A stretch of 64,000 nt of DNA from Escherichia phage PHB12: sequence record MK524178.1; one strand, 5' to 3'. Under the pieces are notes generated by a model that saw only the letters and a list, made by a program, of their open reading frames with translations, was not told the origin of the DNA and searched no databases. The translations under genes and the position numbers were made by a program. Below, piece by piece: positions 6,042-56,821 of this stretch (positions are counted from its first letter, which is position 1; each line of letters begins with the position of its first letter).

Positions 6042-6076
6042 ATAGGTCTATTATATCATAATATTTAGAGACCTAT
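6042..6076 (-). promoter_or_regulatory. stem-loop with TATAAT in loop upstream of gene 55 (promoter-associated hairpin)
   Basis: Inverted repeat ATAGGTCT(6042-6049)/AGACCTAT(6069-6076); minus-strand loop carries TATAAT; TGCTTT (MotA-box-like) just upstream on minus strand. Confidence 0.4.
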
Positions 6077-6403: not shown

Positions 6404-6762
6404 TTTACCGCCTTAACAATTTTCAGGTCAACGAATTTTTTCTTACGTTGATTTTTCATACGACGGATAGTCTTTTCAGAGATTTCATGTTTCTGATAAG
6501 CTTTAGATTCAACACCAAATGCAGCAACGTCAAATTCAGAAAGAATATATTGTACTAGAATTTCGCGAATAGAATTACGTCCAATTTTCTGGCCATGTTT
6601 TTGCATGATTTCATAAAGACGGAATTCCCACGCGTCAAGAACTTGAGGAGTAACAATATTGCCGGATTCCAGAAGAGCAACAACTTTATCGAAAGCGAAA
6701 GAATTAACTACGTTTTTGATTTTAGTAGACATATTATTTTCCTCGGTTATTTTATTATCCAA
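6400..6762 (-). CDS. hypothetical protein
   Basis: 120 aa ORF with basic C-terminal tail (RRMKNQRKKKF). Confidence 0.45.
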   Translation of the reverse strand: MDNKITEENNMSTKIKNVVNSFAFDKVVALLESGNIVTPQVLDAWEFRLYEIMQKHGQKIGRNSIREILVQYILSEFDVAAFGVESKAYQKHEISEKTIRRMKNQRKKKFVDLKIVKAVK

Positions 6763-6764
6763 CT

Positions 6765-6800
6765 AGAGAATTATACTCATCTCTCAAGAGTTGTATATTA
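6765..6800 (-). promoter_or_regulatory. early-type promoter with embedded hairpin (CTCTTGAGAG...GAGTATAAT cassette)
   Basis: Minus strand reads ACAACTCTTGAGAGATGAGTATAATTCTCTAGTTGG; closely related copy at 37090-37118. Confidence 0.5.
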
Positions 6801-7037: not shown

Positions 7038-7100
7038 GATATTTTCCTCATTTTAAGACGATAGGAAGATAATAACATGTCTTCCTATCGTTGTACATTA

Positions 7101-14624: not shown

Positions 14625-14653
14625 AATATTTTCCTCTCGTTAAGATAGAAAGA

Positions 14654-14682
14654 TTATACTCCAACCATCCTTGGTTGTAAAC
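14654..14682 (-). promoter_or_regulatory. early promoter (GTTTAC-17-TATAAT) with hairpin in spacer
   Basis: Minus strand GTTTACAACCAAGGATGGTTGGAGTATAAT; spacer carries inverted repeat CAACCA/TGGTTG; near-identical copy at 15643-15671. Confidence 0.6.
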
Positions 14683-15642: not shown

Positions 15643-15671
15643 ATTATACTCCAACCATCCTTGGTTGTACA
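15643..15671 (-). promoter_or_regulatory. early promoter with hairpin in spacer (copy of the 14654-14682 cassette)
   Basis: Shares TTATACTCCAACCATCCTTGGTTGTA with the 14654 copy. Confidence 0.55.
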
Positions 15672-17257: not shown

Positions 17258-17276
17258 GTTTTACCTCCAGTAGTTG

Positions 17277-17313
17277 ATAGGTCTATAATAACATAACCAT
17301 AGACCTTGTAAAC
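17277..17313 (-). promoter_or_regulatory. promoter-early stem-loop cassette (GTTTAC ... TATTAT with hairpin AGGTCTAT/ATAGACCT)
   Basis: Perfect 8-bp inverted repeat flanking the -10 region; GTTTAC at rc of 17308-17313. Confidence 0.55.
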
Positions 17314-18669: not shown

Positions 18670-18679
18670 TTCGTTTCGA

Positions 18680-18715
18680 TAGGTCTATAATAACATGTTT
18701 AAAGCAAAAGTAAAC
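18680..18715 (-). promoter_or_regulatory. early promoter (GTTTAC-17-TATTAT), half-cassette
   Basis: ATAGGTCTATAATAACAT motif without the second hairpin arm; GTTTAC at rc of 18710-18715. Confidence 0.45.
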
Positions 18716-18936: not shown

Positions 18937-18964
18937 TTTGTTCTCCTCTTGTTTTGATAGGTCT

Positions 18965-18993
18965 ATAATAACATATCCTAAAAGCATGTACAC
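18965..18993 (-). promoter_or_regulatory. early promoter (TGTACA-17-TATTAT) with ATAGGTCTATAATAACAT motif
   Basis: Same cassette sequence family as 17277 and 18680. Confidence 0.45.
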
Positions 18994-19021
18994 CACTTTT
19001 TAAAAATATTTTGACCCCCTA

Positions 19022-19039
19022 AAGGGCCCGAAGGCCCTT
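19022..19039 (-). terminator. hairpin terminator candidate (GGGCC-UUCG-GGCCC on minus transcript)
   Basis: Inverted repeat 19024-19037 directly after the stop of the nucleotidyltransferase gene; short U-run. Confidence 0.45.
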
Positions 19040-19040
19040 A

Positions 19041-21221: not shown

Positions 21222-21347
21222 TTTACCATACTCGTTTCAATAAGATTCACTATGCCGTTTACCATGTTATAAGTAAACATCGGATAATTGTATTGTACTA
21301 CAACATAAGCGATAAGCAAAAGTTTCATTTTGTTCTCCATTTGTTTT

Positions 21348-21386
21348 GGTAGGATTACTATATCATAGTCCTACCAAGACGTAAAC
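21348..21386 (-). promoter_or_regulatory. promoter-early stem-loop cassette
   Basis: GGTAGGATTACTATATCATAGTCCTACC inverted repeat with GTTTAC at rc of 21381-21386. Confidence 0.5.
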
Positions 21387-21844: not shown

Positions 21845-21874
21845 CAAAAAAAGCCCCAACCTTTCGGAAGGGGC
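21845..21874 (-). terminator. rho-independent terminator (GCCCC...GGGGC stem, GAAA-type loop, U7)
   Basis: GCCCCAACCTTTCGGAAGGGGC at 21853-21874 preceded on plus strand by A7; same stem sequence recurs at 22476 and 37655. Confidence 0.7.
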
Positions 21875-21879
21875 TTTGA

Positions 21880-22437
21880 TTAGTTTTTGTAATATCGTAA
21901 AGGGTTGATATGGAATGAAAGCATTGCGCGTGGAATAGGACGACTCAAAAGACTCTTAAGTTTCCAACCACAATAAACACGCAGATAAAATGTAATACCA
22001 CCAACCTTAAGATAAGGTATAGCAGCGAATAATCCCCATGCAGACTCGTTCCAAACTAAAAGATATCCATGATGTGCCGGATCAGGAGATCCAGATTTAG
22101 TTTCGGCGTTGCCTTTATAGTGCCATTCTGATGAAGCTTCGCGACCTAAAACATGATACGAAAAATTATATGCTTTGTTGCGCCATAGCCAAGCTACGCG
22201 TTGAGCATATTTACCTATAACAGGAATTTTACGTATTTTAGACCAACGTTCAACATGGCCGCGGTCACCATCGATAGGATTATCGTAAGTCATCATCCAG
22301 TCAAAGCCATAAGGTAGTTTACCGGTTTTTTCACTATGGAATGGAACTACAAATGGTGCTAGAATAATTGCTAAAATCGCTGCGATCCAATCTATAGGAA
22401 CAAGAACAACCCAACTTATATATTTTAAAAATTTCAT
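21880..22437 (-). CDS. membrane protein, apparently late-expressed
   Basis: 185 aa; N-terminal hydrophobic region (YISWVVLVPIDWIAAILAIILAPFVVPF); late-promoter match directly upstream. Confidence 0.45.
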   Translation of the reverse strand: MKFLKYISWVVLVPIDWIAAILAIILAPFVVPFHSEKTGKLPYGFDWMMTYDNPIDGDRGHVERWSKIRKIPVIGKYAQRVAWLWRNKAYNFSYHVLGREASSEWHYKGNAETKSGSPDPAHHGYLLVWNESAWGLFAAIPYLKVGGITFYLRVYCGWKLKSLLSRPIPRAMLSFHINPLRYYKN

Positions 22438-22470: not shown

Positions 22471-22497
22471 AAAAAGCCCCAACCTTTCGGAAGGGGC
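22471..22497 (-). terminator. rho-independent terminator after rI (same GCCCCAACCTTTCGGAAGGGGC hairpin)
   Basis: Hairpin 22476-22497 preceded by A5 on plus strand (U5 on minus transcript). Confidence 0.65.
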
Positions 22498-28275: not shown

Positions 28276-28578
28276 TTATTTACCTTTAATTACTTTAGCT
28301 GCTTCGATAGCCGCTTGCTGAAGGTCGTCCATAGACATACCGAATTTAGAAGCAAAGTTATCAATTTTCTTTTCGACAGCATTCAAAGGCTTGGCCTGTT
28401 TACCTTCATTAGCGCCAGGAAGAGCGAGAATACGCTCTTTGTCAATATAAAGGCTTACAAGTTTCTTACGGTCTTTATCGGATAAATCATGAAATGAATG
28501 GGCCTTTTTATTTATAGCGGCTTCTAATTTACCTGCACTCACTCGCGCTTCAGTAATAAATTCTTGATATGTTTTCAT
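28276..28578 (-). CDS. ipI: internal protein I (IPI) precursor
   Basis: 100 aa; N-terminal capsid-targeting leader MKTYQEFITEA and body (KLEAAINKKAHSFHDLSDKDRKKLVSLYIDKERILALPGANEGKQAKPLNAVEKKIDNFASKFGMSMDDLQQAAIEAAK) closely match T4 IPI as recalled. Confidence 0.8.
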   Translation of the reverse strand: MKTYQEFITEARVSAGKLEAAINKKAHSFHDLSDKDRKKLVSLYIDKERILALPGANEGKQAKPLNAVEKKIDNFASKFGMSMDDLQQAAIEAAKVIKGK

Positions 28579-28599
28579 ATGTTTCCTTTAAATGTAAAT

Positions 28600-28619: not shown

Positions 28620-29198
28620 TTAATTACCACGGGCTGCATTAGCAACGGCATAAGCGTACTGAACATTAGCGTCTTTAAACGTACCTTTAGAGGTGTCTAT
28701 TTCTGCCTTAAAGCCGCCTTTAGCCATAACATCGGCAAATTCTTTACGGAAGGCCATTGCATCAAGACCCTTCCATGATGATTTATGCTTGGCAAATTCA
28801 AGACCTGCGAAGTTGACAGCTTTAGCCAATTTATTATCAATGACCCATTTACCGGCTTTAGGCACAAACTTCGGGCCTTTTTGTTTAGAGAACAGTTTTA
28901 AATTCCAGCGACGAAGATCACTGTCGGCTTTAACAAAAGCTGCGTCTAAGTTACTAGCAACAACATCTTCAATATGAGCAAATTTAAGTCCGTCAACTTC
29001 AATATTTAGATCGTTACGCCAGCGAAGTCCTTCCCAAGCGAAGGCTTTAAAATCAGAAGCTTTTGTGGCTAGATATCGTTCAAGTGGAGCAGTTTTAGGG
29101 TCGAAGCCGTTTCCACCACGATAAGTCCACTCGTCCTTATTAATGCCTTGAGCTTTTCCTGCAAAGGCCTCGGCGATAAATTCTTTATATGTTTTCAT
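28620..29198 (-). CDS. internal-protein-like protein with capsid-targeting leader (IPIII-sized)
   Basis: 192 aa; begins MKTYKEFIAEA (T4 internal-protein leader), then a basic Lys/Ala-rich body. Confidence 0.6.
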   Translation of the reverse strand: MKTYKEFIAEAFAGKAQGINKDEWTYRGGNGFDPKTAPLERYLATKASDFKAFAWEGLRWRNDLNIEVDGLKFAHIEDVVASNLDAAFVKADSDLRRWNLKLFSKQKGPKFVPKAGKWVIDNKLAKAVNFAGLEFAKHKSSWKGLDAMAFRKEFADVMAKGGFKAEIDTSKGTFKDANVQYAYAVANAARGN

Positions 29199-29228
29199 TT
29201 TTGTTTCCTTGTTTGTTTTGATAGAGTA

Positions 29229-29261: not shown

Positions 29262-29522
29262 TTAAGCTTTACCGCCGGAAATAATTCCGAAGTTGTTAAA
29301 ATCGTATCCAATATCGTCGACATCTACTTTAGGGCTTGCTACAACATAAGCAATTTCACTACGTTTTGCATAGGTGTTGATTTCTTTACCATCGCCACCT
29401 AAGAAAGAATACCCATTACGTTTTAATGAGCCAAAGTCTTCCGCATCACCAATGAAAGCTTTAACTTTAAATTTGGGGTCTTTGGCATCTGCTTCAATGA
29501 TAAATTCTTGATACATTTTCAT
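29262..29522 (-). CDS. internal-protein-like protein with capsid-targeting leader
   Basis: 86 aa; begins MKMYQEFIIEA. Confidence 0.55.
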   Translation of the reverse strand: MKMYQEFIIEADAKDPKFKVKAFIGDAEDFGSLKRNGYSFLGGDGKEINTYAKRSEIAYVVASPKVDVDDIGYDFNNFGIISGGKA

Positions 29523-29530
29523 TTTTTTCC

Positions 29531-29944
29531 TTAGTAAATTGATTTACCATAGTATTTGTACCAAGTCGGACGTTGAGCAATTTTTTCATCTAAGCGTGCT
29601 TGACTTATCGCAATGGACGCTTCGGACGGGACGTAATTATTACGAAATTCTACAGGAATGTCGGAAATATCCTGGACTGTCGTGTCCTTGATTTTGAAAC
29701 CACGTTTCAAACATTCGGTGATTAGCTCGATTTGACGTAAACGTAAAAATTCGAGTTTGTCGTAAAAGAATGTTACGTGACCTGTGCCTAAGATAAATGT
29801 TGGAGAGATTTTAAAATCTTTTACACGTTTACCGTTTTGAACATGTTTACGGACTGCACCAAATACGCGTGGTAATTCACGATACTCAGCCATAAGATGT
29901 TGGTCGGTCAGTTCGGAAACGAGTGTTAAATTGATACGAGTCAT
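29531..29944 (-). CDS. denV: endonuclease V (pyrimidine dimer DNA glycosylase) DenV
   Basis: From ATG 29942-29944: [34 protein letters not shown]... near-identical to T4 DenV as recalled; 137 aa. Confidence 0.85.
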
Positions 29945-30002: not shown

Positions 30003-30284
30003 CTATTTTTCTGAAGCGCCCGAAATATATTTTTCAAGACGTTGTTTCATCAGCGAGCCGTTCTTAGCGATTTCTTCCGGTTTATCGCACATACGCAACA
30101 AGGCTTCAAGCTTAACGATATCACTGGTACGTTCAAATTTGCGAGTATCTATCTTACTAGCAAGTTCAGAAATACGTGCTAATAGACTTTCAGCTTCAAC
30201 CAAAGCTGCACCTAGCTTAGTTGCAAATGTGTCAGTAGCTTCGTTAAGAATAGATTCTGATAAAAATTCACTATATGTTTTCAT
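30003..30284 (-). CDS. internal-protein-like protein with capsid-targeting leader
   Basis: Start at ATG 30282-30284 ([11 protein letters not shown]...), ATGA overlap with the stop of e; 93 aa. Confidence 0.5.
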
Positions 30285-30769
30285 ATATACGCTTTCCAAG
30301 TTCCTGTTTTAAATGTTGAGATTACGCGTTTCGCGCGATTAGGTGTCTGACGATACCATTTAGATTGGGCTAGATTTACTGCCGCTTCGTCCCAACGTTT
30401 CTGTTGAAGCATACGAAGAGAATTAGTAAAACCAGCGACGCCTGCTACACCCATTTGGAAGACCATATTGACCAATGCACATCGACGAACTGCATCTAAA
30501 GAATCATATACCGGTTTAAGTTTAGCATTACCCAAGATTCCGCGAACGGCTTTATCAACGTCTTCATTAAATAGCTTTTCAGCCTCATCAAGGGTAATTG
30601 TACCGTTGCATTTACGTCCGATCATTCTGTCAAGTTCAGCTTTAGCTACGGCTAAAGACGGGTTCTTTGTTACTAAATGGCCTATGCCAATCGTCCAAAA
30701 GCCTTCAGTGTCTTTGTATAAAGACAGTCTAAGACCTTCGTCATTACGAAGCATTTCAAATATATTCAT
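30281..30769 (-). CDS. e: lysozyme (endolysin) e
   Basis: From ATG 30767-30769: [32 protein letters not shown]... matches T4 lysozyme as recalled; about 162 aa. Confidence 0.9.
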
Positions 30770-32651: not shown

Positions 32652-32957
32652 TTATTTTCCTCGACATTCTTTAATGAAATTTTCTAGATTGGTAGATTCA
32701 ATAGCTTTTTTACGAGCTTCTGCGTGTTCTTCTTCGGACAATTTACATTTATAATTGACCCAGACATTATGGTCGAAACTAGTCGTAGCATATAATAACA
32801 ATGCTCCAACGAATAGCAAAAACGGCGATAAGAATACAAAACCAGGAACACCATCCATATCGTAAGCCTTTTGTAATACTGCAACAGAAAGGGCTGCGTA
32901 AAAAGGTGATGCAAATATTGTTAAAAGACCAATTCGGTTGGTTTCGCCTAATTTCAT
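32652..32957 (-). CDS. membrane protein
   Basis: 101 aa with two hydrophobic segments. Confidence 0.4.
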   Translation of the reverse strand: MKLGETNRIGLLTIFASPFYAALSVAVLQKAYDMDGVPGFVFLSPFLLFVGALLLYATTSFDHNVWVNYKCKLSEEEHAEARKKAIESTNLENFIKECRGK

Positions 32958-32974
32958 AATATTCTCCTCATGTT

Positions 32975-33016
32975 TTAATAGGACTACTATAACATAGTCC
33001 CTATAATTGTGTAAAC
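32975..33016 (-). promoter_or_regulatory. promoter-early stem-loop cassette (ATAGGACTACTATAACATAGTCCCTAT + GTTTAC)
   Basis: Inverted repeat around the -10 region; GTTTAC at rc of 33011-33016. Confidence 0.5.
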
Positions 33017-33028
33017 AGTTTTGTGAAG

Positions 33029-33985
33029 TTATTTGAAAGGTTTTACCATATGGAAATTTTGTTTGAAACGTTTGACGTAATCATCATGTCCTAAGCTTTG
33101 GTACATACTTACTACTTTGCTGTAGTTTTCCCAGGCGTATTCACGGAACCAACCGGAGGTGATGCTTGTACAGACTTTTTCCAATGCCATCATGAAACTG
33201 GCTTCAGGGTTAATTTTAAAGTCATTAGGAATCTGAGAACGTTCTAATGCTAGTACACATGATTCTTCGTATACACCGGCCAACTTGACCATTTCTGGTA
33301 ATGATTCGAACTTCTCGCGTGAGGTCATGACTTCAGAACCATCTTTCATATAAAATGTATACGCTGGACGGTCTGTTAGCGCAATGGCTTCATGAATAGT
33401 ATCATGGTCATATGTATAGATGCCATCTTTAAAGAACGCACTTTTAGAAGTGTCAAGAACTGGGTGAACATAGTTCAAGGTTTCTTTCTGGCGTTTCAGC
33501 ATAATTTCAGTAAGTTCATCGTTCAGTGTAACACCTTTACCACGAAGATACTGAATATGGTTCATAGTCTTTAAAAAGAACGGATTATTTTTCTTGAAAC
33601 GATGAGACATCTTAATTGCAAGACATATCTCAGGAGTCGCCCAGTAAAACCCGTTCAAACGGTCTTTAGTCAAATTTTTCTTGGCGTATTTTAAAAGGTC
33701 ATAAGAAGACGTGAAATCTTCAGGAGTGAGTTCACCGACTAATTCACGGGCATTAGTGATTGCCGGAACAATATATGCTTCAAAATGAGTTTCGCGTCCA
33801 TTATGGAAGCATTTGAAAACTTGGACATCAGGGTTATCTTGATGAACATATACACCCATCATTTGATTTTTGAACGCATTCCAAGAACATTGGTCTGCAA
33901 TAAAGTCCCAATCACTATTTTTGATAGCGCTAGAATCAATAAGACCGTGATAGTGAAGTGCACGAGAACCAATAACTAACATCAT
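33029..33985 (-). CDS. hypothetical protein
   Basis: 318 aa; N-terminal VIGSRALHYHGLIDSSAIKNSDWDF loosely resembles a nucleotidyltransferase motif but spacing is atypical. Confidence 0.45.
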   Translation of the reverse strand: MMLVIGSRALHYHGLIDSSAIKNSDWDFIADQCSWNAFKNQMMGVYVHQDNPDVQVFKCFHNGRETHFEAYIVPAITNARELVGELTPEDFTSSYDLLKYAKKNLTKDRLNGFYWATPEICLAIKMSHRFKKNNPFFLKTMNHIQYLRGKGVTLNDELTEIMLKRQKETLNYVHPVLDTSKSAFFKDGIYTYDHDTIHEAIALTDRPAYTFYMKDGSEVMTSREKFESLPEMVKLAGVYEESCVLALERSQIPNDFKINPEASFMMALEKVCTSITSGWFREYAWENYSKVVSMYQSLGHDDYVKRFKQNFHMVKPFK

Positions 33986-34013
33986 AATATTTTCCTCGGA
34001 TTAATTCATTAAC

Positions 34014-34253
34014 TTAAATTTCACGACATGCGATATCATATTCATCCCAGAGGTCATCGTGTGAAGCCTCTACTAATGGAACGATTGTACCATTTATGTC
34101 TTCATTATAAGGGCAAATTGTACAGTGCGCATCTTCGAATCGGATGCCTTTGTGTTCAGATTTTTTATAACGCATATCGAATATCTTTGCAAACTTTTCA
34201 CGAGTAATGGTTTTAGCAACCACTTTGGTTCCAATACTTTCATAATAAATCAT
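34014..34253 (-). CDS. hypothetical protein (possible Zn-binding, CxxC...H...C)
   Basis: 79 aa ORF. Confidence 0.4.
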   Translation of the reverse strand: MIYYESIGTKVVAKTITREKFAKIFDMRYKKSEHKGIRFEDAHCTICPYNEDINGTIVPLVEASHDDLWDEYDIACREI

Positions 34254-34271
34254 TGTGGACTCCGTTTAATT

Positions 34272-34310
34272 TGATAGGACTACTATAACATAGCCCTATC
34301 TTGTTGTAAA
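34272..34310 (-). promoter_or_regulatory. promoter-early stem-loop cassette
   Basis: TGATAGGACTACTATAACATAGCCCTATC with GTTTAC at rc of 34305-34310. Confidence 0.5.
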
Positions 34311-34315
34311 CTGTT

Positions 34316-34513
34316 TTAGCAAGAATAACTAGATGATACCCAGCCTTGAACAGTGATACTATTGTGGGATAATGAGATCGCGTCCTGGAGATTCAGACCT
34401 GCGTTATCTTCAATCCATAACGTAACTTCTTCGCTTTCTTCTGTTGCAATTTGGAACAGGTTTTCCAGAGCAGCTACTGCCGTACGTACAGCACAATCTA
34501 ATTCACGAGACAT
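34316..34513 (-). CDS. small protein, member 1 of tandem family ending GW(I/V)xSSxxC
   Basis: 65 aa; C-terminus ...VQGWVSSSYSC. Confidence 0.45.
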   Translation of the reverse strand: MSRELDCAVRTAVAALENLFQIATEESEEVTLWIEDNAGLNLQDAISLSHNSITVQGWVSSSYSC

Positions 34514-34522
34514 ATGGTTTCC

Positions 34523-34795
34523 TTAGCAAGTGTGAGAAGATGCGATCCAACCACCAGTTTCGAGGCTTAGGTTGTAGTCGTATTGGTAAACGTCGGCCCA
34601 TTCAGCATAGCCGTTTTTTGTACAACGTTCAAGGTCGGCTTTAAGCTGTCCGGGTGAATGATATGTTCCACCCATACCATAAGCTGGATACAAGTCGAAT
34701 GTTGTGTTTTGTTTATCAGCAATTTCTTTGGCAGCCTCAATAGCTGCATAGATTTTTGCTACAGCTTCAGCCAGTTCGGTTTGTTCTTTAGACAT
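34523..34795 (-). CDS. small protein, member 2 of tandem family ending GW(I/V)xSSxxC
   Basis: 90 aa; C-terminus ...ETGGWIASSHTC. Confidence 0.45.
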   Translation of the reverse strand: MSKEQTELAEAVAKIYAAIEAAKEIADKQNTTFDLYPAYGMGGTYHSPGQLKADLERCTKNGYAEWADVYQYDYNLSLETGGWIASSHTC

Positions 34796-34804
34796 AATGA
34801 TTCC

Positions 34805-35110
34805 TTAGCACAACGCAGAAGACGAAACCCAAGCACCTTCAGTAATAACGTAACCATTACCTTCACGCTTAACATCGCCACCATTATTTTCAATTTCATC
34901 TTTCATCCACTGGGATACGATTTCACCCTTAGGATAATAAGTACGACCGCTACCATAATCACCTACAGAAAATGATACGGCATATTGGTCTGCGATCTTT
35001 GTTGCTTCTTCTTCGATACGTTCAGCTTGGTTCAGAAGTTTATAAATTGCATCTGAAGCGGATTTGGCATCATTAAACTCTGGTACTTTAATTTCAATAA
35101 TCTTACTCAT
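34805..35110 (-). CDS. small protein, member 3 of tandem family ending GW(I/V)xSSxxC
   Basis: 101 aa; C-terminus ...TEGAWVSSSALC. Confidence 0.45.
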   Translation of the reverse strand: MSKIIEIKVPEFNDAKSASDAIYKLLNQAERIEEEATKIADQYAVSFSVGDYGSGRTYYPKGEIVSQWMKDEIENNGGDVKREGNGYVITEGAWVSSSALC

Positions 35111-35466
35111 TTTCTACATTCCTTAATAAAGTTTTCTATTGTTTCATTTTCACGTCTAGCTAGGAGTTCATTATAACTAATCATTTGAGAAGCGTAAACT
35201 TTTTTATTTTTCTTGTTATGGTTTATAAAATCGTAGTAAAAATAGACTACAGTACAAAAGGATGCGATGGATGCAAAGGCTTGGGTATACCGTAAGTCCT
35301 GCCATTGGTCTGTGAATCCACCAGAGTTCCCTATAAATCCTAACACAACGCCGTCAATAAGAAATCCAACTAATCCAAAGGCAAATCCCATGCCAATACT
35401 CATAATAAAAATTAGAATGTTCTCACCAAGAGAAGGCCATACGGTTAAGAGTTGAGGCTTTTGCAT
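35107..35466 (-). CDS. membrane protein
   Basis: 119 aa; three hydrophobic segments. Confidence 0.4.
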   Translation of the reverse strand: MQKPQLLTVWPSLGENILIFIMSIGMGFAFGLVGFLIDGVVLGFIGNSGGFTDQWQDLRYTQAFASIASFCTVVYFYYDFINHNKKNKKVYASQMISYNELLARRENETIENFIKECRK

Positions 35467-35870
35467 CTTATTTCCTTAACGAATTCCATAGCTTCTTCAT
35501 ATTCATACTTTTTAACAGCTTCATCATACTGAGCTTGGGCTTTTGCGCACTGAACTTTCCACTCACGAACTCGAGCTCTGTGATGACGGCCTTGGTGCCA
35601 ATATCCTACCCAGTTAATAGGCATTAATAAAAATGGTACAATAAGTGGTGCGACGAACATTAATGAAAATGCTGCATCAGACGATATAACTTCACTAGAA
35701 TCTAAAACAGCTCCTATAATCATAAAGATTAAAAATGCTAAAGCTAAAATAGGGCCAAATAGTACTTCGTTTGGGATTAATTTACGTTTGTATTCATACG
35801 CCCAAGGCTTAATTGGCATGTATAGGGTTGGCTTTGACATATTCTCTACATTCCATAATAAATTGCTCAA
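35445..35870 (-). CDS. membrane protein
   Basis: 141 aa; two hydrophobic segments; true start may be an internal Met because the N-terminus overlaps the upstream ORF. Confidence 0.4.
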   Translation of the reverse strand: MSNLLWNVENMSKPTLYMPIKPWAYEYKRKLIPNEVLFGPILALAFLIFMIIGAVLDSSEVISSDAAFSLMFVAPLIVPFLLMPINWVGYWHQGRHHRARVREWKVQCAKAQAQYDEAVKKYEYEEAMEFVKEIRCKSLNS

Positions 35871-36426
35871 GGATTAAATTGTTAGTGAAATTAGGACTAA
35901 CAACCATAGTTTCATAAAGCGCATCAATAGCACTTAAAGCATCAACTCTTTTAAGCAAAGGCTTGCCTTCATACATAGTTTCAGAATCGACGATTAACGT
36001 AAAGTAGTATTTTTTATTATCGACTAGAACTTCTGTATCGATATAAAACATATTAGACCTCAGAAGCTTATCTCTAAAACCATAATAATCTTCAGAGCGT
36101 TCGCTGATATATTCCAATTCAGTGTTTAAACAACAAACAGACCACGTAGGAGCAACGAAATCAGTGAATCTAATATCATGGTCTGCAACTAGTTTAGCAA
36201 TAGCTCCGATATCATTAATCATGATACCTGGGGCTAATAAAGATTTTCGGTTATTTGCATATTCAGTTGTCTCATAAGAAGCTGACCAGTACCATTTACG
36301 TCCGGTTGCAACATATCGTAATGAATCGACTAAAGACGTAGGTGGATTTACCTTATCTCGGAACTCTTCGAACATTGAGTCAATATCATTATTTTGGTTT
36401 CGCATGTTAACTCCTTTATTATCCAA
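35809..36426 (-). CDS. hypothetical protein
   Basis: 205 aa ORF. Confidence 0.45.
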   Translation of the reverse strand: MDNKGVNMRNQNNDIDSMFEEFRDKVNPPTSLVDSLRYVATGRKWYWSASYETTEYANNRKSLLAPGIMINDIGAIAKLVADHDIRFTDFVAPTWSVCCLNTELEYISERSEDYYGFRDKLLRSNMFYIDTEVLVDNKKYYFTLIVDSETMYEGKPLLKRVDALSAIDALYETMVVSPNFTNNLILEQFIMECREYVKANPIHAN

Positions 36427-36428
36427 AA

Positions 36429-36446
36429 GGAGGACCGGAGTCCTCC
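36429..36446 (-). terminator. hairpin terminator (GGAGGAC-CGGA-GTCCTCC), possibly bidirectional
   Basis: Perfect 7-bp stem; followed by T-rich sequence on both strands (TTTTGG on minus). Confidence 0.55.
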
Positions 36447-36454
36447 GTATTATT

Positions 36455-37048
36455 TTATTTCAAAGAGTTAATATATTCTTGTACATCAGCAGAAGTGGTT
36501 TCGACACCGGCTGGAGTGCCGTTGAACGTTTCAACACGAGTCAGAGTGTCTTCGATATCAACCTTAGTCAGTGCAGCAATTTCAATCACATCATCAGCCG
36601 TAGAGATACCAAGAGCATTGGCTGCTCGAGTTTCACGAATGTATTCGAGTTTGATTGCCAGATTCTGACGAGCGTCATCAAGTTCAACCACCTTACGAGC
36701 AATTTCAATTCGCATAGCGGCGTACCCGTCAGCTTTTGTATTAAGTTGTTCGGCAGTTCGACGATACAGAAGACCAAGCTTAGCATGCATGGTAACATCT
36801 TGTCCTTCAGCCAAGAGCTTACGAATTTCACGTTCCTTAGAAGCGGCTTGCTTGTTCTTTTCATTAACAAGTTCGCGAATACGTTTTTCTTCATTAATAG
36901 ATTTAATAGAAGCCGTTTTTAGTTCTTTGATTTGGGTAATCAACTTATCTGCAGCTGCGTTATACTGTTCTTCGACAGTCAGATTTTTAGCCATAGCAGT
37001 ACCCAGTTTAGTGCGGATGAATTCAACAAGTTTCTTCAGTGTGTTCAT
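36455..37048 (-). CDS. coiled-coil protein
   Basis: Start set at ATG 37046-37048 ([10 protein letters not shown]...); about 197 aa predicted helical/coiled coil throughout. Confidence 0.45.
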
Positions 37049-37089
37049 ATTATTACCTTTCAATTGGTGGTTTATTATCCAATGAGAGC

Positions 37090-37118
37090 ATTATACTCTG
37101 CTCTCAAGAGTTTGTAAA
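37090..37118 (-). promoter_or_regulatory. early promoter TTTACA-17-TATAAT with -10 inside hairpin loop (copy of the 6765-6800 cassette)
   Basis: Minus strand TTTACAAACTCTTGAGAGCAGAGTATAATGCTCTCATTGG; inverted repeat TGAGAGCA/TGCTCTCA. Confidence 0.6.
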
Positions 37119-37346
37119 TTATTTTTTAATCAAATTGACATAAAATTCTGCATCTTCAGGGTGCATGCCTTCGCAGTATTCTTCAACCATGAACTTCTTA
37201 ACAGCTTCATAAGGGCCACTCAGATTAAGCTTGGTTGTCCAGAACTTGGAATCTTGGGCTGAATCGATACGAACTTCAGGGTGACGGTTGCGAATAACTT
37301 CTTCAGTGTATTCATAATCAACGACATCAATACTAACTGTAGCCAT
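37119..37346 (-). CDS. hypothetical protein
   Basis: 75 aa acidic ORF. Confidence 0.4.
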   Translation of the reverse strand: MATVSIDVVDYEYTEEVIRNRHPEVRIDSAQDSKFWTTKLNLSGPYEAVKKFMVEEYCEGMHPEDAEFYVNLIKK

Positions 37347-37392
37347 TTTGTTTTCCTCTTGATTTGATGTGATTACTATAACATAAACTTAC

Positions 37393-37557
37393 TTAGATGT
37401 AAATTATTTCAACGTCACCTTTAGCTGCTTTATAACCTTCAGCCCAAGATACAACAGAGTTTTTATCCGAGGATTCAAATTCAGGCATTGGACTTTCACC
37501 GATATTCACACAGTATGTTTCTTCATTTTCATCGAACCAAATAATTAAAGTAGTCAT
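37393..37557 (-). CDS. small hypothetical protein (54 aa)
   Basis: ATG at 37555-37557 preceded by GAGGAG; below the ORF-track cutoff. Confidence 0.35.
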   Translation of the reverse strand: MTTLIIWFDENEETYCVNIGESPMPEFESSDKNSVVSWAEGYKAAKGDVEIIYI

Positions 37558-37587
37558 TTTGTTTACTCCTCTGTAGTTGATAAGTCT

Positions 37588-37616
37588 ATAGTATCATGTC
37601 CTTAGAAGAAGTAAAC
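37588..37616 (-). promoter_or_regulatory. early promoter GTTTAC-17-TACTAT
   Basis: GTTTAC at rc of 37611-37616; ATAAGTCTATAGTATCA motif of the cassette family. Confidence 0.5.
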
Positions 37617-37647
37617 ATCTTTATGAAATATTTTTATGCCCTAGATA

Positions 37648-37676
37648 CCAAAAGGCCCCAACCATAAGGAAGGGGC
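37648..37676 (-). terminator. rho-independent terminator closing the tRNA/stable-RNA transcription unit (third copy of GCCCCAACC...GGAAGGGGC)
   Basis: Hairpin 37655-37676 followed on minus transcript by CUUUUGG. Confidence 0.6.
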
Positions 37677-37728
37677 TAAGCCTTGCGGCAACCTTGTCGG
37701 GGTTCCACCTGCTAAGGCAAGTGTTTGT

Positions 37729-37820
37729 ACGAAACGCCGGGATTCGAACCCGGTTATTAAGCAGTTGACGCTACTCAATATTTTTAAAAGGCCATATCTC
37801 GACCATATCCGAACGTTCCG
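37729..37820 (-). ncRNA. tRNA-like element (canonical T-arm and acceptor stem, non-canonical core); possible stable small RNA or degenerate long-arm tRNA
   Basis: Minus strand has CCGGG-TTCGAAT-CCCGG T-arm followed by CGTTTCG, which pairs with CGGAACG about 85 nt upstream; D and anticodon regions are AT-rich and do not fold canonically. Confidence 0.3.
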
Positions 37821-37988
37821 TCAAAAACGCTACTCGGCTTATAGCAAAGATATTTCCTCGAATCGATAATTCGGTGCGCCGTTTCTGCTGTGATGTAAGG
37901 GGATATTAACGAATCATAAAGATTTATTAAGACCAGTCCTTACACAGGGAACATCAGTCCGACGACTTGCCGGTAGCGACCCGGCTTC

Positions 37989-38333
37989 TTATTTTGGCAT
38001 ATTATCAATTTGCTCTCGACGCCGACGCCATAGATTAATCGCTTCATTAACACATTCGGCGTTTAGTATATGACGGCAATAATATAATGATTCGCGTTTC
38101 TGAAACCGATGTTGCAATGGGATTTCGTTTAAAAGGTCTTTGCGATCAAAGTATTCAAAACTAGTTAACCCGGAACGGTTTTTAATGAACTTCCAATGAC
38201 CAAATTCATTTTGGAAATAAACGTAATCAGCGTGTTGATATAACGAATTAATCAACCGGTCGGAAATAACTGTATCCTGTTCGTTAAAATAAAACGTTAA
38301 ATCATGAACTACCAGATAAACATTGCCTTTCAT
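37989..38333 (-). CDS. hypothetical protein within the tRNA region
   Basis: Track ORF 37989..38381 trimmed to ATG 38331-38333 (MKGNVYLVVHD...) because the upstream part overlaps tRNA-Arg. Confidence 0.4.
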   Translation of the reverse strand: MKGNVYLVVHDLTFYFNEQDTVISDRLINSLYQHADYVYFQNEFGHWKFIKNRSGLTSFEYFDRKDLLNEIPLQHRFQKRESLYYCRHILNAECVNEAINLWRRRREQIDNMPK

Positions 38334-38349
38334 ATTTTCCTCACTTAAA

Positions 38350-38426
<77 letters not shown>

Positions 38427-38432
38427 CGAATA

Positions 38433-38506
38433 TATGACCCAGACCAGATTCGAACTGGTAACCTTTCCCTTATGAGGGGACTGCTGCTAACCGTTGAGCT
38501 ACAGGG
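38433..38506 (-). tRNA. tRNA with CAT anticodon (Met or lysidine-type Ile)
   Basis: Hand-folded: acceptor GGCCCTG/CTGGGTC (one mismatch), anticodon loop CTCATAA, T-arm ACCAG-TTCGAAT-CTGGT; D-stem has one C-C mismatch. Confidence 0.6.
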
Positions 38507-38587
38507 CCTAAATAACTTTCTATTATGAAAGGCACTTTAGAGCACCTTTGGTAATAGAGGGTATGAATTAATAATAACACATAATTC

Positions 38588-39103
38588 TTAAAGCAAATCA
38601 ACCATTTTAACGGTTGGCAAAACAATTTCTTTTTCAATATAAGCAAATTCGACACGTTCAACTACACGCAAGAAATCGTAATCATAGTATTCAGAAGCAT
38701 AGCCAAGAATATCAATAAGTCCTTGAGATATCTCATCGCCTTTCACAAAGAACAGGTCGAATACGCGGGCTTCGTCTTCTTCAGATTTATCACCAAGGTC
38801 GACTTCAATATCAAAGACCTTTTTAATAAATTCCGGTTGGAGTTGGTCTGAGAACAGTCCTTCAACCAGATATTCGTAGATAATAAGCGAGCAACGTCCG
38901 AATGGTGTATTACCGCAATAACGTTCGGCTTTAGTGCTAGAATGACGGCTCTTAAATTTCTTAAAGAGATATTTAAACTGTTGGAGCTCATGCTCTTCCA
39001 CTTCAAACAATGTTTTGGTTTTATAGTTGTCACCATCACTTTCATATGTAGTGACATCAATTACGTAGCCCTTAGGAATTGTACTGCCTAAACGAATATT
39101 CAT
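38588..39103 (-). CDS. hypothetical protein
   Basis: 171 aa acidic ORF. Confidence 0.45.
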   Translation of the reverse strand: MNIRLGSTIPKGYVIDVTTYESDGDNYKTKTLFEVEEHELQQFKYLFKKFKSRHSSTKAERYCGNTPFGRCSLIIYEYLVEGLFSDQLQPEFIKKVFDIEVDLGDKSEEDEARVFDLFFVKGDEISQGLIDILGYASEYYDYDFLRVVERVEFAYIEKEIVLPTVKMVDLL

Positions 39104-39107
39104 TTAA

Positions 39108-39398
39108 TCACCATACCATATTAATGTAAGTATACTCAATACATTCAAGATTTAAAGGATTCTTGAAAATATCATATTCAAGAGGGCCTTTTTCTGTTTC
39201 AATAAAGAAATCAAAGTTAACTGTGTTAAATTTATCGTCTTCGCAGAGTAATTTAACCTGTGAAGACGAACGGTCGATATAAACCTTTTCAACCTCAAAG
39301 TTAGTCAGAATACCGTAGTCATCGACTAGTGCTTTAGCTGCACGTTGGTCGCTTTCATATCCATTCTCAACGGATTTTACCTTAGCATAAAGAATCAT
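39108..39398 (-). CDS. hypothetical protein
   Basis: 96 aa ORF. Confidence 0.4.
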   Translation of the reverse strand: MILYAKVKSVENGYESDQRAAKALVDDYGILTNFEVEKVYIDRSSSQVKLLCEDDKFNTVNFDFFIETEKGPLEYDIFKNPLNLECIEYTYINMVW

Positions 39399-39757
39399 GA
39401 ATGTTCCACCACTTCAAAGGTATGAGCATCAACAATATGGTACCAGTCAAAATTTTCTTCTGCGTTTTTATAAATTTCGCGAAGAGCTTCAACAGTTTTT
39501 CCTGTAGCAACAAGATCATCAATACCACCAAGAGGATAACAGTCATAACCAGCAAACAGAAGGAAATTAATAGTTTCTGTAGGTTCTGGATGCAGAACAC
39601 CGTTATCATCTACCACTTCAAAGAAAGTGTAAGAAGGAGTACAAGTTTTAATCCAAGCCCATGCTTGAGCCGCTGAATCAAATGGTCTGCGTATCAAACG
39701 ACAATCCGGGTCTTTAGAAGGATTTGCTTCAAAATCCGCATATACGTGATATTTCAT
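39395..39757 (-). CDS. hypothetical protein
   Basis: Start set at internal ATG (MKYHVYADFEANPSKD...); about 120 aa. Confidence 0.4.
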   Translation of the reverse strand: MKYHVYADFEANPSKDPDCRLIRRPFDSAAQAWAWIKTCTPSYTFFEVVDDNGVLHPEPTETINFLLFAGYDCYPLGGIDDLVATGKTVEALREIYKNAEENFDWYHIVDAHTFEVVEHS

Positions 39758-39758
39758 T

Positions 39759-39944
39759 TTACTCACCTTTTGCAATTTTATCCATAACGATAGCGATTAA
39801 GCCGATTAGAAATGCTACTACCAATGAGATAGAGTTTTCGGTTGTTGTCAGTAGTCCACAAATGAATCCTACAAACATCGAAAAACTAAAAGCCATTGAA
39901 GCAATTACTACAGCAACATTACGAATCAGTTCAGCGCGTTTCAT
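39759..39944 (-). CDS. small membrane protein
   Basis: Start at ATG after GGAGA (MKRAELIRNVAVVIASMAF...); two hydrophobic segments; about 61 aa. Confidence 0.35.
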   Translation of the reverse strand: MKRAELIRNVAVVIASMAFSFSMFVGFICGLLTTTENSISLVVAFLIGLIAIVMDKIAKGE

Positions 39945-39971
39945 TTTATTCTCCATTTACTCATTTGTTTT

Positions 39972-40010
39972 GATAGGACTACTATAACATAGTCCTATAG
40001 GCTTGTATAC
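39972..40010 (-). promoter_or_regulatory. promoter-early stem-loop cassette (ATAGGACTACTATAACATAGTCCTAT)
   Basis: 9-bp inverted repeat ATAGGACTA/TAGTCCTAT enclosing the -10 region; -35-like GTATAC. Confidence 0.55.
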
Positions 40011-40012
40011 CT

Positions 40013-40276
40013 TTATTTCAAATATATTGCGTATTTTTTATAGCCACCAGGCTCGTGTCGAAGACCTTTATCATTCGCAAAACGTTGAATGTTATTGAAC
40101 TGGTTTTCATCAAGTTCGGATGTGTCAAATACGAAAAAGTTTCGTTTGTTACCAAGCGTGATATGCGGAGTTAAGTCAATGTTATACAAATTAAGAATAT
40201 CAGCAATAACCTGATTAACCGCTTTGTTAATTTTCACACCAGATGATTCTGAGATGAATTCGTTGAAAGTTTTCAT
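40013..40276 (-). CDS. internal-protein-like protein with capsid-targeting leader
   Basis: Start at ATG 40274-40276 (MKTFNEFISES...); 87 aa. Confidence 0.5.
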   Translation of the reverse strand: MKTFNEFISESSGVKINKAVNQVIADILNLYNIDLTPHITLGNKRNFFVFDTSELDENQFNNIQRFANDKGLRHEPGGYKKYAIYLK

Positions 40277-40300
40277 TTTAGGTTCCATTTGGTTGTTTTG

Positions 40301-40337
40301 ATAGGACTACTATAACATAGTCCTATCATGTTGTAAA
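40301..40337 (-). promoter_or_regulatory. promoter-early stem-loop cassette (same 26-nt hairpin as 39972)
   Basis: ATAGGACTACTATAACATAGTCCTATC followed by TTTACA at rc of 40332-40337 (17-nt spacer to TATAGT). Confidence 0.55.
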
Positions 40338-40649
40338 TTATTTTATGCCTTTAGAAGAAATGGTATTTTGGCGTTTGACCCCTGTTTGTGAAAAATCGTG
40401 GTTATCGATTTGGTCAACTCGCATAACACCAAATGCGGATTTAATTTTGGCTTTTGAACCTTTTTTGATACTAATTACCATATAAGTATCATTTTTCTTA
40501 TATTCGAAATTTGTTACTTCAACGCCTTGATTAGAAATTGACTTAATAATAGCATTAGCGTATTCATCATCTAACGGACCGTTAGTGTTAATAATAAAAT
40601 TTTTATCCGCTTTAGTAGCTTCCGCGATGAATTCTTGATAGGTTTTCAT
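40338..40649 (-). CDS. internal-protein-like protein with capsid-targeting leader
   Basis: 103 aa; begins MKTYQEFIAEA. Confidence 0.55.
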   Translation of the reverse strand: MKTYQEFIAEATKADKNFIINTNGPLDDEYANAIIKSISNQGVEVTNFEYKKNDTYMVISIKKGSKAKIKSAFGVMRVDQIDNHDFSQTGVKRQNTISSKGIK

Positions 40650-40676
40650 TTTATTTCCTTGAGGTTGTTTATTTGA

Positions 40677-40713
40677 TAGGATGATAGTAACACACCATCA
40701 TCCTTATGTAAAC
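40677..40713 (-). promoter_or_regulatory. promoter-early stem-loop cassette variant (AGGATGAT/ATCATCCT stem)
   Basis: 8-bp inverted repeat around TAGTAACAC; GTTTAC at rc of 40708-40713. Confidence 0.5.
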
Positions 40714-56162: not shown

Positions 56163-56821
56163 TGACAATACTTAATACTAAAGCGGGAGTAATATCCCGC
56201 GAAGCAGATTTTTTAGGATTTAGAAAAAATCCTACTCAAATTGATATTTTAAACAACCAAGGCGTAGGTTCTGTAACCATTTCTCAATTGGCAAAAGGAT
56301 TCTACGATGATAACGTAGAATCTGCAATAAACGATGTTCATAATATTGCTAGAGCAGATGTAGGAACAGTTACAATTAACACCTCAGGTGTATCTCCTGA
56401 AGGAACTTCACAGGTAGATTATTGGTCCTTTAGTGGAAGTGTAACTGACCCTAGTTTGCCCGATGGAAGCCCTGTTATTGTAAAAGTTTACGGGCTTCCT
56501 GTTAATGCTACTGTAGGTATGACAGCCGACGAATTTGTTGTACAATTACGTACTACTCTCCAGAATGCGATTTCCGACCAATTGGCTATTGCAGAGTATA
56601 AAGATGACCCTACTGTTGGGACTAAATTACAAATAACATATTTAGATAACCAAAGACACGTACTCCCAACGTATTCCGCTTATGGTATCACGGTTTCTCA
56701 AGAAATAGTGTCTCAGGCTAAGTCCGGGTACGGCACTTGGAATTTACTAGGTGCGCAAACCCTTACTCTTGACAACCATAATTCACCTACAACCTTTTAT
56801 TATTTTGTGAGAACCGCATGA
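56162..56821 (+). CDS. 11: baseplate wedge and tail pin protein gp11
   Basis: Start at ATG 56162 overlapping gp10 stop (TAATG); [20 protein letters not shown]... matches T4 gp11; 219 aa. Confidence 0.85.

Follow-up and report, generated by a model that had tools for sequence, protein, structure and literature searches.

Escherichia phage PHB12 (sequence record MK524178.1) carries, in a stretch of 64,000 nucleotides (nt) referred to here in its full length as the window, dispersed promoter-like sites in which a -35 element, a -10 element, a Shine-Dalgarno (SD) sequence, and a start codon are packed closely together; about a third of these sites also contain a stem-loop built around the -10 element. 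We consider it probable that T4-type early promoters are arranged here as compact cassettes, that the stem present in roughly one third of them acts in RNA reading through from upstream, and that the dispersed cassettes serve as homologies for recombination. The elements of the window are the promoter-early stem-loop (PeSL) phenomenon, which has already been described for T4-type phages, and thus a known kind of element in the RB69/Mosigvirus lineage.

Judged by homology, the window is that of an RB69-like Mosigvirus, a T4-type phage. A megablast search with its 32-41 kb segment matched 841 phage records, the best of them Escherichia phages SF and RB69 (Mosigvirus), with 96-97% identity over 97% of the query. 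This segment corresponds to the RB69/T4 stretch e - e.2...e.8 - frd.3 - tRNA - tRNA.2-4 - ipI - 57B; the genes from e to 57B are all on the minus strand, and two tRNAs lie at 38352-38508. Within the window as a whole, early and middle genes occupy the minus strand at 1-44.5 kb and late baseplate genes the plus strand beyond. A scan of the whole window with Rfam 15, at the gathering threshold, returned two tRNAs only, and no family matches the hairpins.

Promoter anatomy and selection for pairing

A promoter census was carried out over the window and RB69 1-100 kb, using as criteria a TTTACA-like -35 element, a spacer of 16-18 nt, a TAnnnT -10 element, and, within 90 nt, an SD, a start codon, and an open reading frame (ORF) of at least 30 amino acids. 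The window contains 26 such promoter-like sites, located between 6.8 and 40.7 kb, all 26 on the minus strand and each in front of an SD, an ATG, and an ORF. A TGn motif is present in 18 of the 26, and the -35 element varies from TTTACA to TATACA, TGTACA, TTTACG, or TTTACT. The 25 nt upstream of the promoters are 70% A+T (41% A), compared with 62.6% A+T in the window. Downstream of the -10 element come NNNCCTATC, an A/C-rich leader, and then the SD and ATG; most leaders carry GGAG, the target of RegB, which is encoded by RB69. The promoters agree with the T4/PST consensus TTTACW-N17-TAYWAT (PMC4122927) and with the early promoters predicted for RB69 (PMC1524935). By this anatomy the sites are T4-type early promoters, recognized by host σ70, and their activity is predicted.

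At nine of the 26 (-35 starts at 40712, 40337, 40009, 37118, 34310, 33015, 21385, 17312, and 7097) the spacer and the discriminator form a strong hairpin. The 5' arm is supplied by the spacer, the loop holds TGnTATAG, and the 3' arm consists of the discriminator and the predicted +1. The stems are 7-13 bp long, the hairpin encloses or includes the -10 box, and the nine RNA folds range from -10.8 to -17.5 kcal/mol, with z-scores of -2.7 to -6.6. At these strong-hairpin sites the SD and ATG lie 27-41 nt past the -10 element and open an ORF of at least 30 amino acids, and at all nine the stop codon of the upstream gene is found 0-14 nt from the -35 element. Weaker hairpins are present at two further promoters (14681 and 6797).

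The original prediction, made by a model from the letters of this DNA, had listed nine sites with such hairpins or parts of them, and all nine exist. Four of these had been called near-identical copies. Their 26-nt core, ATAGGACTACTATAACATAGTCCTAT, is found at 32978, 34274, 39973, and 40301 with 3, 1, 0, and 0 mismatches, respectively; these are the only matches at up to 3 mismatches, compared with none in 100 dinucleotide shuffles, and the same families are recovered by an independent repeat finder (D1-D4, D13). The resemblance is close over the hairpin/-10 core of about 30 nt (77-93% identity) but not over the whole cassette from -35 to +39 (56-72%). The three proposed variants, at 17277-17313, 21348-21386, and 40677-40713, are real hairpins; the two proposed half-copies, at 18680-18715 and 18965-18993, do have promoters but retain only the 3' arm, AGACCTAT. 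The expected arrangement, in which a -35 and a -10 element about 17 nt apart stand beside an inverted repeat, is seen at the listed sites: the -10 element is TATAGT, TATTAT, or TACTAT, the spacer of 16-18 nt usually ends in TGn, an SD and ATG follow 27-38 nt past the -10 hexamer, and, apart from the half-copies, the stems fold (the copy at 32978 has a spacer of 18 nt, and the copy at 39973 has a weak -35, TATACA). Their position upstream of minus-strand genes was also correctly seen, but to call these genes accessory is too broad, as several are conserved T4 orthologues (e.6, nrdC.8, tRNA.4, and internal proteins).

The occurrence of four copies within 7.4 kb, so similar over their cores, is what would be expected if the hairpins had no function and were simply recent duplicates or gene-conversion products of a single palindromic ancestral promoter. 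This explanation is at odds with the diversity of the stems. At least five unrelated stem classes are present in the window, (TGAT)AGGACTA, AGGTCTAT, AGGATGAT, ACGATAGGAAGA, and TGAGAGCA, and unrelated stems, fully compensated, occupy the same place relative to the -10 element both in paralogues and when T4 is compared with RB69-type orthologues. Perfect stems of at least 6 bp are found at 9 of the 26 promoters, where spacer shuffling predicts 1.1 (maximum 5 in 500), and stems of at least 7 bp at 7 of the 26, compared with 0.26 expected. In 291 unique promoters from related phages, 26% have a fold of -10 kcal/mol or below, compared with 0.3% after spacer shuffling; the distribution of energies is bimodal and far from this null. 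A set of 75 hairpins from related phages contains 48 distinct 5' arms.

Pairing is also in excess when it is not used to choose the sequences. Among 150 promoters that have a 17-nt spacer and were not selected for pairing, 53.9% of the cells of the main register are paired, compared with 48.7% after shuffling (0 of 500) and with 33-45% when the register is slid; the covariation score of the same promoters is 0.237, compared with 0.174 after shuffling (0 of 500). A scan of IMG/VR with the pattern TTTACA-N17-TAYWRT-NNN-CCTATC, which does not demand pairing, yielded at least 120 loci; the matches listed include 89 unique 41-mers, about one third of which form hairpins (-10 to -20 kcal/mol). The arms of these are of many different sequences, and in every case the three free bases and further positions are compensated. 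Two registers can be distinguished, one in which the -10 element lies in the loop (class I) and one in which it is part of the 3' arm (class II), and the distance from AGG to CCT varies from 18 to 24 nt. These shuffling and covariation comparisons show that the stem is under selection for pairing.

The original prediction had considered that the repeats might be absent from the equivalent positions of relatives; in RB69 they are present there, with small differences and with the pairing often kept. The stem TGAGAGC/GCTCTCA of the 37118 cassette, for example, is CGAGAGA/TCTCTCG in RB69 (42500), with both the outermost and the innermost pair compensated, and the RB69 orthologue of the 6797 cassette has a perfect CGAGAGA/TCTCTCG stem. 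In a 10-kb stretch of T4 (NC_000866), hairpins that enclose the -10 element were found at ipI (73938, -17.4 kcal/mol), trna.4 (73571, -11.6 kcal/mol), and e.7 (70358, -11.7 kcal/mol); the layout is that of the window, and the stems are unrelated to those of the window. (The T4 RefSeq record has an N within the e.7 promoter hairpin.)

Strand asymmetry and the relation to terminators

The two strands of the hairpins do not fold equally well. Of 77 hairpins, 66 fold more stably as the sense strand and 9 as the antisense strand; G.U pairs number 102 on the sense strand and 38 on the antisense strand. When only interior departures from Watson-Crick pairing are counted (those with two pairs on each side), there are 21 G.T juxtapositions and 1 A.C, or 13 and 1 when relatives are clustered (p=0.002). 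Since no such bias is expected from a duplex operator or a cruciform, it points to a structure of the single, sense strand.

This asymmetry bears on the possibility that the palindrome is a double-stranded DNA operator, through which a dimeric phage or host protein would shut off some of the early promoters. The palindrome does overlap the -10 element and +1, where repressors classically bind; one arm, (T)AGGACTA, recurs in five copies of the window, and most classes share the outer TAGG...CCTA. Moreover, passages of two papers (PMC3014915; PMC2988021) describe early shut-off as unexplained and AsiA-independent. However, the arms can be wholly different from site to site (TGAGAGCA, AGGATGAT, GGTCTAT, GGGCTA, GGGTAG, and others, as the count of distinct arms given above indicates), the AGG-to-CCT spacing and the register are not constant, and departures from Watson-Crick pairing that are nearly all G.T on one strand would be meaningless for a duplex site. 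A duplex operator, rejected on the basis of arm diversity, variable spacing, and strand asymmetry, is consequently very improbable.

A second relationship is seen with canonical terminators. Within 100 nt upstream of the promoter, such a terminator is found at 0 of 75 hairpin promoters and at 25 of 215 hairpin-less ones (p=5e-4). The three promoters of the window that do have a terminator ahead (37615, 21834, and 18992) are exactly the degenerate or half copies, and a terminator scan of the window gave no cassette hairpin among its results. The hairpin and the canonical terminator thus appear to substitute for each other where the upstream message ends. Neither this mutual exclusivity nor the strand asymmetry is anticipated if the hairpins are functionless duplicates. 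That explanation is disfavoured, and we regard it as very improbable.

The probable role of the stem in read-through RNA can be pictured as follows. The cassette's own transcript would begin at the 3' edge of the stem, and with the predicted start at this position a complete hairpin is possible only in RNA that comes from upstream. In that RNA the hairpin would be an intercistronic element that lacks a U-tract and marks the 3' end of the upstream message, standing in for a canonical terminator in compact junctions. It would act by attenuation or pausing; alternatively, it would form a barrier to 3' exonucleases after cleavage by RegB or RNase E in the leader. According to a passage in PMC2988021, nuclease protection seems to be required for T4 delayed-early RNA. 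A literature search for genome-wide mapping of 5' or 3' ends in T4 or RB69 found none.

Breakpoints and gene shuffling

The breakpoints of homology between the window and its relatives were located by comparison with RB69, phiEC1, HX01, and JN02 over 1-48 kb and with SF, 348Ecol098PP, ESh27, F27, and AV111 over 30-43 kb, and a cassette zone was defined as reaching 50 nt upstream and 90 nt downstream of a -35 element. The breakpoints form 53 clusters, 20 of which fall in cassette zones, compared with 4.4 expected for random positions (maximum 14 in 5000). Gene junctions that bear a promoter have a breakpoint in 16 of 25 cases, compared with 21 of 70 for other junctions (odds ratio 4.1, p=0.004). 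Of the gaps of 40 nt or more that lack a promoter, 6 of 19 carry a breakpoint, a figure that fits the supposition, part of the explanation by functionless duplicates, that breakpoints at the cassettes are merely intergenic. Outside the cassette zones, breakpoints occur at tRNA genes and a duplicated terminator, within the N-terminal codons of internal-protein genes, and elsewhere. The claim that the cassettes delimit most of the variable ORFs is therefore borne out only in part: breakpoints are enriched at the cassettes and modules of JN02 are bounded by them, but fewer than half of the clusters lie in cassette zones.

The positions of the crossovers are informative. They map to the -35 hexamer or to the leader and N-terminal codons, not to the stem. 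Homology with RB69, JN02, AV111, phiEC1, and HX01 breaks off precisely at 40010, where the -35 element of the 40009 cassette has its upstream edge, and past this point it resumes at 40250 or 40627, within the conserved N-terminal codons of two internal-head-protein genes. JN02 has two extra small ORFs (corresponding to window 33010-33016 and 37110-37124), each located between two cassettes, and their junctions are at the -35 hexamer, T(G/T)TACAAAC.

The N-terminal codons make up a repeat of their own, in which an SD and ATG are followed by capsid-targeting-sequence codons (MKTYQEF...; 40618..40659 on the minus strand, with a further copy at 40248-40286; D5, D6, D8). Copies are present at 28547-28588, 29167-29208, 29491-29532, 30253-30294, 40248-40286, and 40618-40659, in 5-6 internal-protein genes. 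With the breakpoints at 40627 and 40250, this repeat is the second homology patch that bounds the swapped modules. PHROG assigns genes 28276-28578, 28620-29198, 40013-40288, and 40338-40649 to internal virion/head proteins; they form two loci, both of which are replaced relative to RB69, with breakpoints inside the capsid-targeting repeats.

Another insertion is bounded by repeats of a plain intrinsic terminator. A perfect 27-nt direct repeat of this terminator, AAAAAGCCCCAACCTTTCGGAAGGGGC, at 21848-21874 and 22471-22497 (D10), encloses a 596-bp insertion that contains a DUF7338 gene (21880-22437) and is absent from RB69, phiEC1, HX01, and JN02. A third copy (85%) lies at 37650-37676, at the 37645-37650 breakpoint that recurs in nine relatives. 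Dispersed cassettes would thus serve as short homologies for deleting, inserting, and swapping ORF modules between related phages, and the terminator repeats and the N-terminal codons of the internal proteins would serve likewise. On this pattern of junctions, the cassettes are probably recombination substrates by virtue of being short dispersed homologies, and recombination would be linked to the cassette as a repeat, as it would to other short repeats of any kind, rather than to the hairpin.

A more specific proposal is that the hairpin itself is a DNA recombination site, folded as a single strand or extruded as a cruciform, at which a structure-specific enzyme (endonuclease VII or some recombinase) would excise and integrate ORF mini-circles in an integron-like manner. 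PeSL mini-circles have been detected in RB49/phi1, and site-specific recombination has been left open (PMC2839356; PMC4122927). Selection on one strand is also seen in folded single-strand sites such as attC, and the JN02 modules do lie between two cassettes. If this proposal were true, attC-like sites would give T4-type phages a dedicated gene-cassette system that goes beyond short-repeat recombination. However, junctions in the -35 hexamer or in the leader and N-terminal codons are not those of a site located in the stem, breakpoints are found at hairpin-less promoters at much the same rate as at hairpin-bearing ones, and a plain terminator repeat (D10) bounds another insertion. In addition, stems of 7-13 bp with loops of 6-8 nt would make poor cruciforms, which the A.C mismatches of the other strand would weaken further. 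A recombination site of this type is extremely improbable.

Several points weigh against the reading preferred here, in which the stem of a compact cassette acts in read-through RNA and the repeated cassette serves recombination. The sense-strand bias is equally compatible with structure in the non-template DNA strand, and part of the G.U excess could stem from the G/T-rich consensus of TGn and the -10 element on the sense strand. There is no U-tract: five or more T residues occur in the next 8 nt in 1 of 75 hairpins, and that stretch is 58% A, which makes canonical intrinsic termination unlikely. (An interpretation of the hairpins as canonical intrinsic, Rho-independent terminators was rejected for this reason.) The exclusivity between hairpin and terminator may partly reflect a lack of room in compact junctions, and the start site of the cassette is a prediction from spacing. 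Breakpoints are expected between genes anyway; they touch 7 of 9 hairpin-bearing and 10 of 17 hairpin-less promoters, with no clear difference, and with such similar rates the hairpin has no demonstrated role in recombination. Thus, the proposal that hairpin cassettes mark the sites of gene shuffling stands for early-promoter cassettes in general, but it is not specific to those with a hairpin. Finally, sequences from related phages are not independent of one another.

The individual cassettes and related systems

All of the cassettes lie on the minus strand. The one at 40672..40712 is upstream of the internal-head-protein gene 40338-40649 (PHROG internal head protein). It has the -35 element TTTACA at 40707-40712, the -10 element TACTAT at 40684-40689, and a hairpin at 40678-40704 (AGGATGATGG.../...CTATCATCCT; the stem can also be given as AGGATGAT/ATCATCCT); this hairpin is of class II, with the -10 element in its 3' arm, and has an energy of -15.4 kcal/mol (z -6.0). 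The cassette at 40297..40337, upstream of the internal-head-protein gene 40013-40288, combines TTTACA at 40332-40337 with TGT-TATAGT (-10 at 40309-40314) and a hairpin at 40299-40328, TGATAGGACTA/TAGTCCTATCA (-17.5 kcal/mol, z -6.6). Next to it, upstream of the tRNA.4-like gene 39759-39956, the cassette at 39969..40009 has its weak -35 at 40004-40009, TATAGT at 39981-39986, and a hairpin at 39973-39998.

The cassette at 37078..37118, upstream of the e.6 homologue, was overlooked in the original prediction. Its -35 element, TTTACA, is at 37113-37118, its -10 element, TATAAT (37090-37095), is in the loop, and its hairpin at 37083-37106 (-12.6 kcal/mol) has the stem TGAGAGCA/TGCTCTCA, which is unrelated in sequence to the other stems. 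At 34270..34310, upstream of gene 34014-34253, the -35 element occupies 34305-34310 and the -10 element, TATAGT, 34282-34287; the hairpin at 34273-34300 includes one G.U pair on the sense strand (-16.0 kcal/mol, z -6.4). The cassette at 32974..33015, upstream of gene 32652-32957, has its -35 element at 33010-33015, its -10 element at 32986-32991, an 18-nt spacer, and a hairpin at 32980-33001 with an extra bulged G.

Away from this cluster, the cassette at 21345..21385 has TTTACG at 21380-21385, TATAGT at 21357-21362, and a hairpin at 21346-21377 (-14.4 kcal/mol) with the arms TTGGTAGGA.../...TCCTACCAA, or, written out, TTGGTAGGA.CTA/TA.ATCCTACCAA. That at 17273..17312, upstream of an nrdC.8-like gene, has a -35 element at 17307-17312, a 16-nt spacer, TATTAT at 17285-17290, and a hairpin at 17279-17306, AGGTCTAT/ATAGACCT (-13.4 kcal/mol). 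The cassette at 7057..7097, also missed at first, has TGTACA at 7092-7097, TATTAT at 7069-7074, and a hairpin at 7058-7091, ACGATAGGAAGA/TCTTCCTATCGT (-16.7 kcal/mol, z -6.3). Another that had escaped notice, at 6758..6797, is paralogous to the 37118 cassette and has a weaker hairpin (GAGAGA/TCTCT, -8.0 kcal/mol). The two half-copies, at 18953..18992 and 18675..18714, are promoters with the 3' arm AGACCTAT and no 5' arm; the former has a canonical terminator ahead at about 19018-19040.

A further hairpin that was not in the original prediction, TAGGTCT-19 nt-AGACCTA at 6043..6075 on the minus strand, has TATAAT in its loop and lies upstream of the homologue of gene 55 (late sigma factor). A TTTACA -35 element is missing, TGCTTTA is found further upstream, and the hairpin may represent the middle-promoter equivalent of the early cassettes. 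A breakpoint, 6097|6099, lies near it, and an insertion of 184 bp is present 22 nt upstream of it in RB69, HX01, and JN02.

Some other sites resemble parts of the cassettes. A good match to an early promoter, TTTACG-17-TATAAT, is present at 35170-35198, within the 3' end of the e.3 coding sequence, and the homology with 348Ecol098PP breaks precisely at its -35 element (35199|35450). An identical 27-nt promoter core, ACCAAGGATGGTTGGAGTATAAT, occurs on the minus strand at 14653-14679 and 15643-15669, preceding two neighbouring genes of about 310 amino acids in the nrdC.5/nrdC.6 region; here a small hairpin lies within the spacer and not across the -10 element. In the late (baseplate) region, a perfect 8-bp palindrome at 56214-56234, TAGGATTT-5 nt-AAATCCTA, has A/T runs on either side and the same TAGG...CCTA ends as the early cassettes, and is without promoter context.

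Intercistronic palindromes of comparable character are known from enterobacteria. The REP/BIME elements are dispersed and imperfect, act as RNA on the sense strand, and lack a U-tract; they protect the message upstream of them from 3' exonucleases, and rearrangements also occur at them. The cassettes are unrelated to these elements in sequence, REPs are not nested in promoters, and a stabilising role of the cassette hairpin would be by analogy. A closer parallel in layout is the leader of T4 lysozyme (e), where, according to a figure legend (PMC3014915, Fig. 5), a hairpin holds an internal late promoter. As in that leader, the promoter of the cassette lies within the stem-loop, and transcripts from upstream hold the whole hairpin, whereas those from the internal promoter are without the 5' arm. 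However, the 3' arm of the e hairpin is described there as sequestering the ribosome-binding site, whereas in the window it ends about 20 nt before the SD, which is left unmasked.

PeSLs were defined in RB49/phi1 as an AT-rich region, σ70-like boxes, a stem-loop, an SD, and a start codon, and for these phages promoter activity (in lacZ fusions), terminator activity, and mini-circles were demonstrated, with site-specific recombination left open (Arbiol et al. 2010, PMC2839356). They were extended to PST/T4 (TTTACW-N17-TAYWAT, with stems AGNA-loop-TCNT) and to nt-1/KVP40 by Comeau et al. (2014, PMC4122927). As had been proposed for this DNA, the window has every one of these features at the level of sequence: AT-rich upstream DNA, -35 and -10 boxes about 17 nt apart, a stem-loop, and an SD with a start codon, located in hyperplastic regions upstream of small ORFs and close to indels or replacements between near relatives. 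The stem, like most of those in RB49/phi1, lies between the boxes or overlaps the -10 element; in contrast to the RB49 stems, those of the window are AT-rich and without polyG/polyC. They share the promoter consensus of the PST/T4 elements and fit the AGNA-loop-TCNT type, although the stem-loops of PST are placed, in a figure legend of PMC4122927, just upstream of the promoter, whereas the hairpins of the window and of T4 ipI, trna.4, and e.7 enclose the -10 element. The experimental demonstrations are those for RB49/phi1, and the window cassettes are known from sequence.

The T-even phages provide a precedent at the internal-protein (IP) genes. As cited in passages of PMC2839356 and PMC4122927, Repoila et al. 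(1994) found PeSL-like elements at two IP loci, which a passage of PMC2839356 describes as built on T4 early promoters, with stem-loops that are weaker and AT-rich, and as analogous, not homologous, to the RB49 PeSLs. The window resembles what these passages report in having ipI beside 57B and a second IP locus near e, with IP genes swapped between conserved flanks, which in the window are the cassette and the capsid-targeting-sequence codons. In contrast to the elements described there, the window cassettes are also found far from the IP loci, at 7.1, 17.3, 21.4, and 33-37 kb.

The RB69-like Mosigvirus lineage is absent from the PeSL analyses of Arbiol et al. (2010) and Comeau et al. (2014), and a literature search found no paper that names both RB69 and PeSL. 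For RB69, Nolan et al. (2006, PMC1524935) predicted 57 early promoters, many of them upstream of novel ORFs, with a preference for C at -3 to -1; that paper uses none of the terms 'hairpin', 'stem-loop', and 'palindrom'. The promoters are also like the T4 early promoters as depicted in Hinton (2010, PMC2988021, Fig. 2), with a UP-like A-rich region, a -35 of the GTTTAC type, TGn, the -10 element, and C at -3 to -1; the passages of that paper returned by a search without the words spacer and discriminator make no mention of complementarity between the two.

The general picture, in which cassettes make every small early gene a separate unit of expression and supply short repeats for the loss, gain, and swap of accessory genes, such as those for injected internal proteins that counter host defences, has been published already. 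What is added here is the documentation of these elements in the RB69/Mosigvirus lineage and of three T4 early promoters in which a hairpin is embedded in the same way. Selection for sense-strand pairing, exclusivity with terminators, the two registers, and a link to recombination that would lie with the repeat rather than the hairpin are incremental additions to that picture of how T4-type phages express and exchange their small early genes.

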